This document shows positions 3,311 to 39,546 of a stretch of DNA of 43,235 nt, one piece after another. How positions within the stretch are numbered: position 1 is the first letter of the stretch; every line of letters starts with the position of its first letter. A program made the position numbers and the translations under genes. Origin of the DNA: Patescibacteria group bacterium (GTDB lineage Bacteria; Patescibacteriota; Minisyncoccia; UBA6257; 02-FULL-45-10c); NCBI GenBank assembly GCA_028865335.1, contig JAGWKK010000002.1, positions 1-43,235 on the forward strand, written 5' to 3'. A model generated the notes under the pieces. The model made no database searches and was not told the origin of the DNA. It worked only from the letters and a program-made list of their open reading frames with translations.

Positions 3311-4033
3311 ATGGCCACCGAAGAATTCCCGATGCGGATCAACAAATATCTCGCCTCTCAGAAGATCGCCAGCCGGCGCGGCGTTGACGACCTCATCCGC
3401 CAGAAGCTGGTGCGTATCAACGGACGCATCGCGATGCTGGGCGCGCAGGTCAATGAGGGCGACAAAGTGACCGTCGGCAAAGTCGTTCAGGAGCAGATCC
3501 AGAAGCACCGGACCTATCTCGCGTACAACAAGCCGCGCGGCGTCGTGTCGCATACTCCCGAAGAGGGACAGCAGCAGATCACCGATGTCGTCAATGTCGG
3601 TTTCCCGGTTTTTCCGATCGGGCGGCTGGACCGCGCGTCCCGCGGACTCATCATCCTGACCAACGACGGGCGGATCACCGGCAGATTGCTGGATCCGCAG
3701 TATGAACACGAAAAGGAATATGCGGTGACGGTTGACCGTCCGCTGGAGAAGCATTTTCTGCGCCATCTTGCCGCGGGCATGAAGATCGAAAGCGAAAAAA
3801 CCCGGCCGGCGGAAGTGAAGCAGACGGGGGAGAATCGCTTCACGATCATACTCAGCGAAGGCAAGCGGCATCAGATCCGCCGCATGTGCGCGGCATTCGG
3901 CTATCGGGTGACCGATCTCCGCCGCACCCGCATCATGAACATCAAACTGGGCGCGCTTGCCGAAGGAACCTGGCGGAAGATAGAAGGGGATGAATTGAAG
4001 ACGTTTTTGACCGCGCTTGGTTTTGAAGAATAG
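3311..4033 (+). CDS. pseudouridine synthase, RsuA/RluF family, with S4 domain
   Basis: MRINKYLA S4-type N-terminus and catalytic GRLDRASRGLIILTNDG. Start is ATG 3311 or 3332; the listed 3236 start is rejected. Confidence 0.9.
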   Translation: MATEEFPMRINKYLASQKIASRRGVDDLIRQKLVRINGRIAMLGAQVNEGDKVTVGKVVQEQIQKHRTYLAYNKPRGVVSHTPEEGQQQITDVVNVGFPVFPIGRLDRASRGLIILTNDGRITGRLLDPQYEHEKEYAVTVDRPLEKHFLRHLAAGMKIESEKTRPAEVKQTGENRFTIILSEGKRHQIRRMCAAFGYRVTDLRRTRIMNIKLGALAEGTWRKIEGDELKTFLTALGFEE

Positions 4034-4103
4034 GTTTTTAGATGATGCATGCCTGATCGGTGCATATCTCTTTTCCGTGACTGGGATATACTGAAGAGAG
4101 AAT

Positions 4104-4319
4104 ATGGAGCAATCCAATTTCAAAGTGTGGTATGCGATTTCCTTCGCGTTTCAGCTGGGTTTTTTGACGATCAGCGTCATCGTGGGTTTCGCATGGTTCG
4201 GCTTGTGGCTTGATTCGATCTTCCAGTTCGGAAACCTGTTTTTTCTGCTCGGCGTATTCTTCGGGATGGCGGTCGCCATCTACGAGGCGCACAGCATGGC
4301 GACTTTTATCGTGCAATAG
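4104..4319 (+). CDS. AtpZ/AtpI-like small membrane protein of the ATP synthase operon
   Basis: 71 aa with two TM helices, immediately upstream of atpB. Confidence 0.6.
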   Translation: MEQSNFKVWYAISFAFQLGFLTISVIVGFAWFGLWLDSIFQFGNLFFLLGVFFGMAVAIYEAHSMATFIVQ

Positions 4320-13917: not shown

Positions 13918-14027
13918 GGCTTGTCGTTATGATCATAAAAAGTTCAACTCATTCAATTAGAATAAGATAACACCGACCAGCGGTATGTTGCGCTTTTGCG
14001 GTTCGCTTGGATTATGATGGAACCTTT

Positions 14028-14648
14028 TTAATCCCTTAAATCTGGTAATGCATTGACGATCTTATCCCAAACTTGCTTAATCTCATCTATAGAATACATT
14101 CTTTTAAATCTGATCCTTAAGTGATCCGGCTCTATAATAAGATTGATATCCTGTTCGCGAAGTTTATTTTTCAAATTTTCAAAATCAGCGGGATGCTGAA
14201 AATATTTCTCCATAAATCCGATCATTTGACCGGCGCCGGGATCAAACCCCGATTCATAGGTTTTATATCCTTTATCCTGTATTTTTACAATCGCATCTCT
14301 AACCTCCGGCTCAATCATTTCCATAAGCACTCCTAATTTTTGTTCTGCTGGAGTTTTAACAGGATTTTCTTGTCTACGCTTTTCAAGCGCCTTACTCATT
14401 TCGGCGAGGGTTGATTTGCGTAGCATAGCATATTGCGAATAAAGCTCTATTTGTTCTTTTGTGCAACCGGATAAGATTCGCAATCTTTCGAGCTCCTCAG
14501 GCAGATGGTTTTGCAAAACTTTTTCTATTGATTCCTCATCATATGTTTTATTATTTGGATTATATCCAAATAAAGCCCCGTCCTCGGGCGTCGGGATTTC
14601 TGGCGCGCTTTCCCTTGATCGCCTTGGTCCTTGTTTTTCTGGGTTCAT
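14028..14648 (-). CDS. hypothetical protein (206 aa), low-GC orphan
   Basis: Long ORF in a visibly AT-rich stretch next to the tRNA-Gln locus; no recognisable motif. Confidence 0.6.
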   Translation of the reverse strand: MNPEKQGPRRSRESAPEIPTPEDGALFGYNPNNKTYDEESIEKVLQNHLPEELERLRILSGCTKEQIELYSQYAMLRKSTLAEMSKALEKRRQENPVKTPAEQKLGVLMEMIEPEVRDAIVKIQDKGYKTYESGFDPGAGQMIGFMEKYFQHPADFENLKNKLREQDINLIIEPDHLRIRFKRMYSIDEIKQVWDKIVNALPDLRD

Positions 14649-14689
14649 GGATTACTAATAATTTATCACAAATACATTGATACGCACAT

Positions 14690-14880
14690 CACTTCTCGAC
14701 GGGGCGCAAGAATCAAGGCCCGCTCGCTGACTACCTGCAGGCACAGGCTCACTCGAACCGCGTCTGGGCACCCCTGCCTGCCGGCAGGCAGGTTCGGTTT
14801 CCCATCCCTTCCTGATGCGCCTGTCCCGCCAAAGCTTCAGCGGCGGAGGAGGGTGCTGCTGGTTCGAATCCCTTAGTCAC
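14690..14880. other. GC-rich structured non-coding segment with tRNA T-arm-like fragment
   Basis: Perfect 20-nt palindrome CCTGCCTGCCGGCAGGCAGG, hairpin CCCGCC-AAAGCTTCAGC-GGCGG, and GCTGGTTCGAATCC at 14858-14871 without a pairing T-stem. Confidence 0.3.
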
Positions 14881-14910
14881 AATATTTAAAAATTATATGT
14901 ATCGTAATTG

Positions 14911-14981
14911 TTCCGAGACAGGGATTCGAACCCCAATTTTCGCTTCCAGAGAGCGACGTCCTACCATTAGACGATCTCGGA
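14911..14981 (-). tRNA. tRNA-Gln (anticodon CUG)
   Basis: Hand-folded cloverleaf: acceptor TCCGAGA/TCTCGGA (U1-A72), U8, A14, GG in the D-loop, anticodon stem TCGCT/AGCGA, loop CUCUGGA, T-arm TGGGG-TTCGAAT-CCCTG. Confidence 0.9.
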
Positions 14982-15227
14982 ATATATCGTACCCAGCTTT
15001 CGCTTCAAAACCTTCTTTCCTTTGGCGCTTTTGTAGAACCTCTCCATCTCAAAAGCTTTATATAGATTCTCATACCCCTCCGAATAAATCAACGCTAAAG
15101 GTCGGCGACTTTTCGTAGATCGGACATAGCCATTATTATGATATTCCAATCGATCCTTAAGAGAAGCCGTGCATCCTATATATAGCTTCTTATCTTTCAA
15201 GCTTTTGAGAACGTACAGATACTGCAT
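14967..15227 (-). CDS. GIY-YIG nuclease superfamily protein (86 aa, UPF0213/YhbQ-like)
   Basis: YLYVLKS...KLYIGCT...RLEYHNNG...RRPL.LIY.E...E motif series. The last 5 codons and the TAA stop overlap tRNA-Gln nt 1-15. Confidence 0.85.
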   Translation of the reverse strand: MQYLYVLKSLKDKKLYIGCTASLKDRLEYHNNGYVRSTKSRRPLALIYSEGYENLYKAFEMERFYKSAKGKKVLKRKLGTIYSEIV

Positions 15228-15250
15228 GGTGATAGCTTGCTATCATTGCC

Positions 15251-15308
15251 GAGCGACGTCCTACCATTAGCCTCGCCCATAGGCTACGGCCGAGGGACGA
15301 TCTCGGAA
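15251..15308 (-). pseudogene. orphaned 5' half of tRNA-Gln (nt 1-32) interrupted by a 26-nt hairpin
   Basis: 15251-15270 and 15297-15308 are identical to 14951-14970 and 14971-14982; 15271-15296 is an inserted hairpin; identity stops in the anticodon loop. Confidence 0.7.
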
Positions 15309-15431
15309 TATCAAAAGACTACCTTGTATAGTGTACGTCACCTGCTGATAAAATTCAACGGCATGTGTACAACTCAATGATGGAATATGCTATGCTTATT
15401 CTTGTATCACAATTAACAACTATTTTCACAT

Positions 15432-16055
15432 ATGAACAGCAACAAGTTCATGGATGTAAATCCGCAAAAAAGAGGCGAGGGGATGATGGGTGATGAAATG
15501 CCGATGGAAGGAATGTCCCGGCCGTCGCGTTTGGGTAAATTAAAGGACATGTGCGCAAAATGCTATCCGCGCACGGCGTATGGCTGGCTTGCCACCCTGG
15601 TCGGCGCAGTATTGGTATGGTATCTGCTTGTTTCCTTGAGCATTCTGCCGTCACTGACGTTCCCGCTGGTTGATGGCGGAAAGTGGCAGGCGGTGTTCCT
15701 GTCCAACGGCCAGGTCTATTTCGGCCATCTGCACGAATTGAACAGCGACTACGTTGATCTTACGAACATCTATTATCTGAATGTCACCGGCCAGGCGCAG
15801 TCAACAAGTCCGAACGCCCAGCAGCAAATCAGCTTGGTAAAGATGGGCAATGAATTGTACGCACCGGAAGATATGATGAACATTCCGAAGTCGCAGATCG
15901 TCCACTGGGAGAACATGCAGGCGAATTCGCCGGTAGTGCAGGCGATTGCCGCCGCAGTCACCCAGGCACAGCAACGGGCCGCAGCTCCCGCAGCAAATGC
16001 TCCGACAGCTCAGCAACCGGCTGCAGCCCCGGCAGCGACCGCTCCCGCAAAATAG
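15432..16055 (+). CDS. hypothetical membrane-anchored protein with Ala/Gln/Pro-rich tail (207 aa)
   Basis: Single TM (WLATLVGAVLVWYLLVSLSIL) and low-complexity C-terminus. Confidence 0.65.
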   Translation: MNSNKFMDVNPQKRGEGMMGDEMPMEGMSRPSRLGKLKDMCAKCYPRTAYGWLATLVGAVLVWYLLVSLSILPSLTFPLVDGGKWQAVFLSNGQVYFGHLHELNSDYVDLTNIYYLNVTGQAQSTSPNAQQQISLVKMGNELYAPEDMMNIPKSQIVHWENMQANSPVVQAIAAAVTQAQQRAAAPAANAPTAQQPAAAPAATAPAK

Positions 16056-16065
16056 TGTCGCTATT

Positions 16066-16092
16066 CAAAAAACGCCCCTTCGGGCGTTTTTT
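16066..16092. terminator. bidirectional intrinsic terminator
   Basis: AAAAAACGCCC-CTTC-GGGCGTTTTTT between convergent genes. Confidence 0.7.
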
Positions 16093-16103
16093 GTTTTGAG
16101 CTG

Positions 16104-16880
16104 TTATCCGATCAGATCGCGGTAGCCGTTCATGAAATCCGCGTAGGTCATCGGCTTCTTTCCTTCGGGCTGCACTTTCTTCAGATCGAGCCTCCCGTCG
16201 GCAAGATCCGCCTCCAAAAGCTTCAGGCGCAGATCTTTTCCATTCTTCAGATGCAGTACCGTAAAAGCACCCGGCTCCGGATTGAGCGCGCGGATTTTCA
16301 GCCATGCTGACCGGGGATCGCCCGCCAGATCGACTTCGGCATCAGCGGTGACAAATTTGCGCGTAAACGTCGCCTTCGATTCGTCCTGGGGCACGGCGGT
16401 CAGGGAGTCGTCCAGCCAGGCCGGCATCGTCGCGATCAGCAGGTCGGCGCTCAGGCGAGCCAGTTTTTCAATCAGCGAAACATACGTGTCCTGATCGGTG
16501 ATGGCGAGTTTTTTTTCTGCAAGCACCGGTCCGTTGTCCACTTTTTCATCGATCAGGAACAACGCCGTCCCGGTTTCATTCTCATCATGCAACAGAACGC
16601 TCTGTACCGGCGACGCGCCGCGGTAGCGGGGGAGCAGCGACGGATGGATACCGATGGTGCCGCGCGGCGGAATGATAAGCAGATCCTTTTTGAGGATCTT
16701 CCCGAACGCGGCGACAACGAAGAAATCCGCATTGAGCGAACGCAGGTGGTCCAGGTCCAGCGGCTTTTTGGCATCGCGGACCGCCTCAACCGGCGGCATC
16801 CCGGCCGCAATCAGGGAATCCAGAATGATCTGAGCGAAGGCGGATTCGCGTCCGCCGAAGAAAATATAGCGAGGTATCAT
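16104..16880 (-). CDS. fmt: methionyl-tRNA formyltransferase (short, 258 aa)
   Basis: HPSLLPRYRGASPVQ motif; immediately downstream of def. Confidence 0.9.
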   Translation of the reverse strand: MIPRYIFFGGRESAFAQIILDSLIAAGMPPVEAVRDAKKPLDLDHLRSLNADFFVVAAFGKILKKDLLIIPPRGTIGIHPSLLPRYRGASPVQSVLLHDENETGTALFLIDEKVDNGPVLAEKKLAITDQDTYVSLIEKLARLSADLLIATMPAWLDDSLTAVPQDESKATFTRKFVTADAEVDLAGDPRSAWLKIRALNPEPGAFTVLHLKNGKDLRLKLLEADLADGRLDLKKVQPEGKKPMTYADFMNGYRDLIG

Positions 16881-39330: not shown

Positions 39331-39417
39331 GGAGGGGTCGCATAGTGGCCTAGTGCACCATCTTGGAAAGGTGGCATGCCCGAAAGGGCATCGAGAGTTC
39401 GAATCTCTCCCCCTCCG
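39331..39417 (+). tRNA. tRNA-Ser (anticodon GGA), class II
   Basis: Acceptor GGAGGGG/CCCCTCC, 3-bp D-stem, anticodon stem CCATC/GGTGG with loop UUGGAAA, long variable arm ATGCCC-GAAA-GGGCAT, T-arm GAGAG-TTCGAAT-CTCTC, G73. Confidence 0.9.
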
Positions 39418-39457
39418 CAAAATTTGCAACGGCTTTATGCCGTACCAAATTTTTCTG

Positions 39458-39546
39458 GTAGGGGAGGATTCGAACCAGCCGCGAGTGAAACTTAAGTCTC
39501 TCCCCCTCCGCCTTCGCCTCGCCATAGCTCGGCTTCGGCGTGACGC
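39458..39546. other. tRNA-derived debris: T-arm-like fragment, 15-nt repeat of the tRNA-Ser 3' end, and a C/G hairpin
   Basis: GGATTCGAACCAGC at 39466-39479; TCTCTCCCCCTCCGC at 39497-39511 equals 39404-39418; hairpin CGCC-ATAGCTCGGCTTC-GGCG. Confidence 0.5.

Follow-up and report, generated by a model that had tools for sequence, protein, structure and literature searches.

How can a nuclease gene settle inside a transfer RNA (tRNA) gene and still leave its host a complete tRNA? The question is raised by a locus in a Patescibacteria group bacterium (assembly GCA_028865335.1), within a window of 43,235 nucleotides (nt) of contig JAGWKK010000002.1, the whole stretch analysed here, to which all coordinates refer unless another sequence is named; tRNA positions are counted from nt 1 of tRNA-Gln(CUG). 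On the minus strand, a copy of the 5' part of tRNA-Gln(CUG), interrupted by a small hairpin, precedes an open reading frame (ORF) of 86 amino acids (aa) with a single GIY-YIG nuclease domain, and this ORF runs into an intact tRNA-Gln(CUG). More than 45 independent genomes of Patescibacteria share the layout, either at tRNA-Gln or at tRNA-Glu genes. The hairpin is conserved among them and also inserts alone, and equivalent tRNA sites in relatives are mostly empty. The reading towards which we lean, as somewhat better than an even call, is that the tRNA-Gln gene harbours a selfish cassette, compact and belonging among the free-standing homing endonucleases.

A nuclease gene between a partial and a complete tRNA

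A first-pass annotation of the window had described a tRNA-Gln(CUG) locus with an upstream 5' copy, a GIY-YIG ORF and an intact tRNA, and ARAGORN, Rfam, Pfam and the exact repeats all confirm this arrangement (Table 1). Its coordinates were right to about 1 nt: the upstream copy starts at 15311 instead of 15312, and the leader counts 23 nt and not 22. The intact tRNA scores 60.9 bits with the Rfam tRNA model (14911–14981) and its acceptor stem pairs at 7/7 positions. Two exact direct repeats tie the upstream copy to it. The first, of 16 nt, comprises the 4 nt of 5' flank and tRNA nt 1–12 (15296–15311 equals 14970–14985), and the second, of 20 nt, runs from nt 12 to canonical C32 (15251–15270 equals 14951–14970), thus covering the D-loop, the 3' strand of the D-stem, the 5' strand of the anticodon stem and the first base of the loop. 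By an arithmetic estimate, such repeats would be expected by chance within 1.3 kb at roughly 2e-4 and 1e-6, respectively. C12 is present on both sides of the 25-nt hairpin, which makes the net insert 26 nt, the size first given for the D-arm insertion, and the identity between the two tRNA copies indeed ends after C32. Taken together, a 36-nt direct repeat brackets a 264-nt insert whose content is the GIY-YIG ORF alone.

Table 1. Position of the elements of the locus, and of LAGLIDADG genes lying between ftsX and tRNA-Gln in relatives.
Feature	Sequence	Position	Strand	Basis or remark
Copy of the 4-nt 5' flank of tRNA-Gln (ATAT)	window	15308–15311	minus	within the exact 16-nt repeat
Block A, copy of tRNA-Gln nt 1–12, TCCGAGATCGTC	window	15296–15307	minus	exact repeat; final CGTC abuts the hairpin
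Conserved imperfect hairpin, 25 nt, CCTCGGCCGTAGCCTATGGGCGAGG; putative nuclease recognition site	window	15271–15295	minus	motif match and fold
Block B, copy of tRNA-Gln nt 12 to canonical C32	window	15251–15270	minus	exact 20-nt repeat
Leader, 23 nt, block B to ATG	window	15228–15250	minus	direct reading
Single-domain GIY-YIG ORF, 86 aa (MQYLYVLKSL…GTIYSEIV-stop)	window	14967–15227	minus	ORF list and Pfam
Intact tRNA-Gln(CUG)	window	14910–14981	minus	ARAGORN; Rfam
LAGLIDADG gene (236–260 aa)	L094	3464–4246		
LAGLIDADG gene (236–260 aa)	L106	3466–4176		
LAGLIDADG gene (236–260 aa)	L114	3468–4178		

The ORF stands outside any intron or intein and adjoins a complete tRNA, which it overlaps: its end, TCC GAG ATC GTC TAA, is tRNA nt 1–15. 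The overlap had been noted with its TAA, but it holds four sense codons and not five. As the sole ORF of the insert is the GIY-YIG gene, there is no tyrosine or serine recombinase in it, nor an HUH/Y1 transposase at the locus. A group I intron in the anticodon loop was discarded, for want of an Rfam intron match and because the downstream tRNA is complete by itself; besides the two tRNAs, Rfam gave no match at E ≤ 1 over 14000–16200 or at gathering score over the whole window.

Signals for expression were also sought. The only consensus-like promoter between ORF and tRNA (TTGAAG-16-TATATT, 15008–14981) ends on tRNA nt 1, and was rejected because a start from that site would fall inside the tRNA; none was found upstream of the tRNA fragment either. 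With no consensus promoter at either place, co-transcription of ORF and tRNA is something we infer. The leader shows no obvious Shine–Dalgarno sequence, and the AGGA of the D-arm, plausible in this role in most relatives (1–10 nt before the ATG), lies 31 nt from the ATG here and was dismissed.

The protein is a conserved GIY-YIG nuclease

The 86-aa protein belongs to the GIY-YIG nuclease superfamily by every test. Pfam PF01541 matches it with E 9.6e-13 and 48.7 bits (cutoff 22.6), and the domain spans residues 2–78. The AlphaFold model (predicted local distance difference test 89.6) has a GIY-YIG fold of topology β-β-α-α-β-α-α, followed by a disordered tail encoded by the tRNA. Foldseek retrieves UPF0213 BH0048, Slx1, I-TevI and UvrC N-domains. 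In a separate comparison, the closest solved relatives are UPF0213 proteins (E 7e-10 and 4e-9). The first-pass annotation had set conservation of the ORF as a test, and the ORF is conserved: among 22 aligned homologues Y16, G18, R26, H30 and E62 are invariant and Y5 is nearly so (at least 90%), and the ratio of nonsynonymous to synonymous substitution rates (dN/dS) is 0.06–0.25 among the closest ORF pairs, which indicates that these genes are under purifying selection.

Databases hold 60 homologues of 77–145 aa (most 78–99), chiefly from Patescibacteria, and many of them end in SGIV, CGIV, WGIV or WEIV, the residues encoded by the 5' end of tRNA-Gln. An exact-protein look-up did not retrieve the 86-aa product; what the database has is a 77-aa call with a later start (P0001, MKDKK…), which begins internally and lacks the first β-strand, where the GIY tyrosine lies. 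With the ATG at 15227 as its start, the 86-aa reading agrees with the N-termini of all homologues. P0061, a protein of 1390 aa, matches the beginning of the GIY-YIG profile (its first 26 residues) at 20 separate places; it could be a repeat protein, or the translation of a repeat array.

The layout recurs at tRNA genes across Patescibacteria

A homologue scan with one genome per species found 136 loci, of which 80 were fetched. Among the 48 closest, about 36 have tRNA-Gln (CUG/UUG) after the ORF, in the same orientation, and six have tRNA-Glu (CUC/UUC), at a spacing of −43 to +10 nt, mostly −21 to +10. The stop codon falls inside the tRNA in 25 of the 46 Gln/Glu loci and 2–10 nt upstream of it in 17. 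ORFs of more distant relatives adjoin tRNA-Asn, Tyr, Trp, Arg, Asp and Leu. In nearly all loci, a 5' fragment of the cognate tRNA stands upstream of the ORF, split at nt 12/13 by a common hairpin. The first-pass annotation had called the locus the mirror image of 3'-end replacement by integrases; the comparison is apt, and the opposite geometry, tRNA–ORF–3' fragment, also exists in the family (L149, L079, L049, L044).

The cassette has several host contexts: dnaX–tRNA-Gln(UUG), ftsX–tRNA-Gln(CUG) and tRNA-Glu sites. Synteny of the window with its closest relative (L001) was not borne out, the upstream neighbours being unrelated. Since the sources are metagenome-assembled genomes and tRNA repeats can confuse short-read assemblers, one might suspect an assembly or binning artefact of reads mis-joined at these repeats. 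This is hardly credible: the ordered layout is seen in more than 45 independent assemblies from varied pipelines, including a closed chromosome of 808 kb (L037) and contigs above 100 kb, it is seen again in 24 contigs from many samples that carry a single protein (P0014), and the ORF is intact and conserved.

Other small GIY-YIG subfamilies, including UPF0213-like proteins and ones with a REKQIKGW motif, are encoded just downstream of ftsX-linked tRNA-Gln genes (L091 2557–2826, L146 3986–4228, L147 about 4045–4293). It seems that tRNA-Gln is a hotspot where minimal GIY-YIG genes of several lineages settle.

A conserved, directional hairpin at tRNA genes

The hairpin of the window divides the upstream fragment at tRNA nt 12/13 and consists of two 5-bp stems, with a G·G mismatch between them, and a 3-nt loop (−8.8 kcal/mol as DNA). 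Its exact motif match (15282–15295, minus strand) is the only good copy in the window. We collected 59 instances from 54 sources, in which the arms CCTCGGCCGTAG and CTAYGGGCGAGG are 71–100% conserved per position (most at least 93%), the G·G mismatch is constant and the loop is variable. The flanks are equally regular, with C at −1 and at +1 in 100% of instances and T at −2 in 93%. In 38 of the 59, the hairpin interrupts a tRNA-Gln or tRNA-Glu fragment at nt 12/13, with …ATCGTC before it and CTAAYGG after it; another 15 lie in the acceptor stem, at nt 6/7 and in inverted orientation, and nine of those are samples of one population. Here and in most relatives the hairpin stands 23–70 nt upstream of the ATG, and most loci have it on one side of the ORF only, with copies on both sides in L025, L029 and L044.

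Hairpins also occur without an ORF: in the D-loop of extra full-length copies of tRNA-Gln (L019, L043, L044) and of a truncated one (L029), in T-loops (L043, L044), and as tandem copies. Some are nested inside other hairpins (L013, L019, L023, L033, L047). In the window and about 215 kb of scanned flanks, there is no copy away from tRNA or ORF loci. Other GIY-YIG subfamilies at tRNA genes have different GC-rich hairpins at other tRNA positions (L099, L137, L046, L048, L053, L070, L075). The hairpin might be taken for damage to the D-arm. Its recurrence in 54 sources, and its insertion on its own at TC sites, argue instead for a nearly invariant directional motif. By analogy with the Ssn family of site-specific nucleases of single-stranded DNA (ssDNA), which are associated with hairpin repeats named NTS/SRM (Chenal et al., Nat Commun 2025, PMC11893778), its most likely role is that of a recognition site for the nuclease.

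Just 3' of tRNA-Gln, a GC-rich structured stretch (14655–14885) contains a perfect 20-nt palindrome, CCTGCCTGCCGGCAGGCAGG (14773–14792), which is also present in the unrelated loci L147 and L154 and closely resembles hairpins beside GIY-YIG ORFs at tRNA genes (L075/L070). A transfer-messenger RNA or an intron-containing tRNA was considered for this stretch, and nothing credible came out of ARAGORN in its tmRNA, intron and relaxed settings, nor any match out of Rfam. The stretch may be debris of another hairpin or nuclease element.

The upstream fragment resembles the local tRNA

If the upstream copy were a displaced 5' half in decay, as first proposed, it should differ from the intact gene. 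In the window it is without substitutions outside the hairpin, i.e., 100% identical, and elsewhere it tracks the local tRNA. Of the 33 type-1 loci that have an equivalent of block A ahead of the ORF, 20 show it identical to nt 1–12 of the local tRNA. Over nt 1–8, the fragment matches its own tRNA in 16 of 27 loci, where 2.2 are expected and the maximum over 10,000 shuffles is 9. Block B of relatives matches the local tRNA over 12–18 nt and usually ends 1–10 nt before the ATG. A neutral relic of such age should have drifted, so that the fragment must be constrained, homogenised or repeatedly regenerated.

These data bear on the model that had been drawn from the window by itself, a single insertion of about 300 nt into the anticodon loop with a replacement 5' half, the displaced half decaying and the hairpin being incidental damage. 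The 36-nt direct repeat around the 264-nt insert, and the end of identity at C32, fit it. Yet it is very improbable: the upstream copy shows no decay, the supposed damage is a conserved motif with the same position in 38 instances, and the layout is found in over 45 genomes with anciently diverged ORFs.

Each of the two tRNA genes of the window is followed by an inverted, diverged copy of its own T-loop and 3' acceptor strand, 28 nt long and 75% complementary in one case (14861–14888 versus 14905–14932), 37 nt long and 73% complementary in the other (39397–39433 versus 39439–39475), and the 14-mer GCTGGTTCGAATCC is common to both inverted copies; a terminator-like role and tRNA debris are both possibilities. 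The last 15 nt of tRNA-Ser(GGA), TCTCTCCCCCTCCGC (39404–39418), are repeated exactly 93 nt downstream (39497–39511), and a GC-rich stretch partly like the arm of the conserved hairpin (CCTCGCCATAGCTCGGC) follows the TCTCTCCCCCTCCGC repeat. This site looks like a remnant of the mirror type, made of a tRNA, a lost insert and a 3' fragment.

Gain and loss at ftsX–tRNA-Gln sites

Is the nuclease gene an insertion into an ancestral tRNA-Gln locus, as the first-pass annotation held? A metagenome scan with FtsX gave 80 loci (L090–L169), 55 of which have tRNA-Gln(CUG) within 900 nt downstream, and shows presence and absence for relatives rather than for the window's own lineage. The claim stands: about 45 of the 55 sites are empty, with a gap of 6–150 nt and no ORF, fragment or hairpin. 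The GIY-YIG cassette occupies three. Another three hold a LAGLIDADG endonuclease gene (PF14528) in the same order of 5' fragment, ORF and tRNA (Table 1), one (L118) retains a fragment–hairpin remnant without ORF, and one (L092) a mere footprint. Any nuclease gene is thus present at only about 11% of these sites.

The footprint is informative. L092 and L091 are near-identical contigs, and between ftsX and tRNA-Gln the former has a 47-nt footprint (3412–3466) where the latter is clean (2375–2382). It is made of 4 tRNA bases (TGCG), half of the inverted hairpin and the last six codons typical of the GIY-YIG ORF. The pair is direct evidence of cassette loss by internal deletion.

Two of the LAGLIDADG loci (L106, L114) have a tRNA-Gln 5' fragment, nt 1 to about 23, upstream of the gene, and in two of the three (L094, L106) the D-arm of the downstream tRNA departs from the norm, which may mark an allele that resists cleavage. 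Across L090–L169, the D-stem of the ftsX-linked tRNA-Gln(CUG) is unusually polymorphic, with compensated changes (CGTC in 33, CATC in 11, CTGC in 7, AGTG/GGTG in 5). This polymorphism could reflect escape from nucleases that target the D-arm.

How the cassette could spread

We propose that the nuclease recognises its own hairpin, and possibly the tRNA D-arm, on ssDNA, as Ssn nucleases do. Cleavage would initiate copying (homing) into empty tRNA-Gln or tRNA-Glu genes, with the tRNA sequence serving as homology, and the outcome would depend on where synthesis re-anneals: a full cassette in some cases, a hairpin-only tRNA in others. The repeated tRNA segments that flank the ORF would be products of this copying and would also permit later deletion. 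As a full tRNA always remains, the burden of the insertion on the host should be small. The nuclease gene probably shares whatever drives transcription of the tRNA, which RNase P would then release from the 3' end of the ORF transcript; we suggest both because of the geometry of the locus and of established tRNA biology. A stop codon inside the tRNA suggests that this processing could create a non-stop messenger RNA, and where the codon lies in the D-loop, as here, the cut may keep nuclease levels low.

The autonomous hairpins invite another mechanism, hairpin-guided single-strand transposition in the manner of IS200/IS605, with the GIY-YIG protein as transposase. The unit would be hairpin–block B–ORF–tRNA nt 1–12; a cut would follow …ATCGTC at each end, and the unit would be pasted on the 3' side of the same ATCGTC in the D-arm of a tRNA gene, so that the native nt 1–12 would be left upstream, the tRNA would be rebuilt with those of the element, and hairpin-only units would be non-autonomous derivatives. 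A number of observations agree with it. First, the junction of fragment and hairpin is at nt 12/13 in 38 of 38 D-loop instances, and the hairpin lies 3' of TC. Second, hairpin-only and nested insertions lack flanking homology. Third, the ORF of L025 is bracketed by direct copies of tRNA nt 1–6, hairpin and nt 7–15. Fourth, the authors of the Ssn study suspected an origin similar to that of insertion sequences for the arrangement NTS–ssnA–NTS (PMC11893778). The difficulties are greater, and we regard this explanation as improbable: most loci have the hairpin on one side only, block B is left without a role, and where fragment and tRNA differ, the acceptor strands of the tRNA fit and the fragment is the odd one out, the opposite of what is predicted. 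Moreover, GIY-YIG enzymes are generally known solely as hydrolytic nucleases, and we know of no strand-transfer activity or covalent intermediate for any of them.

A bolder formulation would unite these elements. Ssn-type GIY-YIG nucleases and their hairpins might form an unrecognised class of minimal mobile element, moving by ssDNA cut-and-paste or copying at TC sites and here specialised on tRNA genes, where the invaded tRNA would be rebuilt from a carried or duplicated segment and hairpin-only insertions would be non-autonomous derivatives. We put this forward tentatively, as an idea that we would sooner doubt than accept.

Host function or selfish spread

Several observations weigh against a selfish cassette that homes through its hairpin. 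1) The downstream intact tRNA has a standard D-arm, ATCGTCTAATGGTAGGAC, the hairpin disrupting only that of the upstream fragment, so that a simple homing enzyme cutting that sequence would cut its own allele. 2) The 86-aa protein, being a single domain, is without a DNA-binding domain of the classical homing-endonuclease kind. 3) The published SRM pattern, HGTCWYN(0-2)YYVSBRHN(0-5)WNVSBRGN(0-2)RNCYNB, matches NTS controls and fails to match this hairpin, the window or L001–L048, and we do not class the hairpin as an SRM. 4) Unlike NTS, the hairpin is not dispersed in many copies over the window and its scanned flanks. 5) Synonymous sites are saturated even between the closest ORFs (proportion of synonymous differences 0.4–0.8), so that no recent transfer is visible and a long vertical residence is possible. 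6) The context is identical in all 24 contigs with P0014, which come from one population in many samples. 7) No vector relatives came to light: tblastn found no match in 72,556 plasmids, and viral contigs gave weak, distant matches only, with no hairpin. 8) In L002, L006, L017, L021 and L038, the fragment misfits the 3' acceptor strand of the resident tRNA and resembles a different tRNA-Gln variant; as far as the sequences tell, no single model of which tRNA copy is the original fits all loci.

Some of these points are shared with a quite different explanation, in which an Ssn-like ssDNA nuclease has been domesticated and serves the host, e.g., by restricting or shaping transforming DNA. The fragment and hairpin would then be a fixed 5' untranslated region or operator from one ancient insertion, and the patchy distribution would come from repeated loss. 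Strong purifying selection alongside saturated synonymous sites, the stable context over the 24 contigs of one population, the conserved rather than decayed fragment, and the host-level role of SsnA in transformation in Neisseria (PMC11893778) are in its favour. We take it seriously but find it unlikely, for five reasons: the nuclease gene is rare at ftsX–tRNA-Gln sites and footprints exist; the cassette is found at several tRNA species, each with the fragment of its own tRNA; hairpins insert independently into other tRNA copies and other hairpins; an unrelated LAGLIDADG homing-endonuclease gene has the same geometry; and the hairpin is not spread over the genome like NTS. We retain the selfish, homing cassette as the preferred interpretation.

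Implications

Our analysis suggests that a few small parts, i.e., a bare nuclease domain, a hairpin and a duplicated piece of tRNA, allow an essential RNA gene to be invaded and yet not destroyed. The layout of a 5' or 3' tRNA fragment, a nuclease gene and an intact tRNA is found with two unrelated families of nuclease. The Ssn enzymes were described only in 2025, and to the question of their origin and role outside Neisseria our finding would bring a concrete lifestyle, that of tRNA-embedded cassettes with their own hairpin. If the bolder reading as a class of minimal mobile elements were true, these loci would provide the first comparative evidence of Ssn–hairpin mobility, and would explain the proliferation of hairpin repeats. 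There are practical consequences too: gene callers cut the ORF short, tRNA finders miss copies that the hairpin interrupts, and the tRNA fragments can be mistaken for pseudogenes. Finally, such hairpin–nuclease pairs are candidates for new sequence-specific ssDNA cutters, and Ssn enzymes are under development for just this use.

Relation to known systems

The first-pass annotation knew of nothing similar. This holds for the cassette itself, since a literature search, incomplete so that prior art is still possible, found no description of tRNA-embedded GIY-YIG or hairpin cassettes; it does not hold for related precedents, which exist in the Ssn family (PMC11893778) and in SegB of phage T4 (PMC2330249). 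Among better-known elements, integrase-borne islands and prophages share with our locus a direct repeat of part of a tRNA that bounds the insert, and the regeneration of one intact tRNA; relatives L149 and L079 even have the classical polarity of tRNA, insert and 3' fragment. They differ in that the insert here, of about 300 nt, contains a nuclease gene only and no integrase, and in that the 5' part (nt 1–32) is duplicated with the intact copy downstream, the mirror of the usual 3' repeat. IS200/IS605 and REP/RAYT elements have in common with it small imperfect hairpins on one strand, an apparent insertion 3' of a short fixed sequence, and hairpin-only and nested derivatives, but here there is no HUH/Y1 transposase, there is usually one hairpin and not two different ends, and the target tRNA is duplicated. 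The LAGLIDADG genes at tRNA-Gln (L094, L106, L114) have the same layout downstream of ftsX, i.e., tRNA 5' fragment, ORF and complete tRNA-Gln, but are much longer, of unrelated fold and without hairpin.

The two GIY-YIG precedents come nearer. SegB is a free-standing phage homing endonuclease that cuts double-stranded DNA; its 27-bp site has a motif of the tRNA T-arm at its centre (PMC2330249). As in our locus, its gene lies among tRNA genes outside an intron, and relatives differ in whether they have it. A conserved tRNA motif forms the core of what SegB recognises, and neighbouring tRNA sequence travels along when it spreads, as we propose for the cassette. It differs in being a phage gene, without hairpin or partial tRNA duplication, whereas ours is chromosomal, encodes a bare domain of 86 aa and is tied to a hairpin.

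SsnA, a single-domain GIY-YIG protein of 94 aa, binds its directional hairpin only on ssDNA and cuts a few nt upstream; cutting requires 3 bases before the palindrome and binding requires the C after it, the NTS reading CGTC–palindrome–C (PMC11893778). The differences from the cassette are clear. The hairpin described here is unrelated in sequence to NTS and has longer arms, NTS exists in hundreds of dispersed copies whereas this hairpin is confined to tRNA genes and their fragments in the regions scanned, and the nuclease gene here lies within a tRNA gene that is partly duplicated, while the Ssn study never mentions tRNA (0 occurrences; PMC11893778). Membership of the 86-aa protein in the Ssn family (cd10448) is plausible but unproven. 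The likenesses are nevertheless many: both have a single GIY-YIG domain of about 80–95 aa without a DNA-binding domain, catalytic positions at Y5, Y16 and E62 here and at Y6, Y17 and E64 in SsnA, a gene beside a conserved directional imperfect hairpin, and the sequence CGTC before and C after that hairpin, here with the CGTC supplied by the D-stem of the tRNA. By these analogies, the Ssn family is the closest known system to the tRNA-Gln cassette and its functional precedent.

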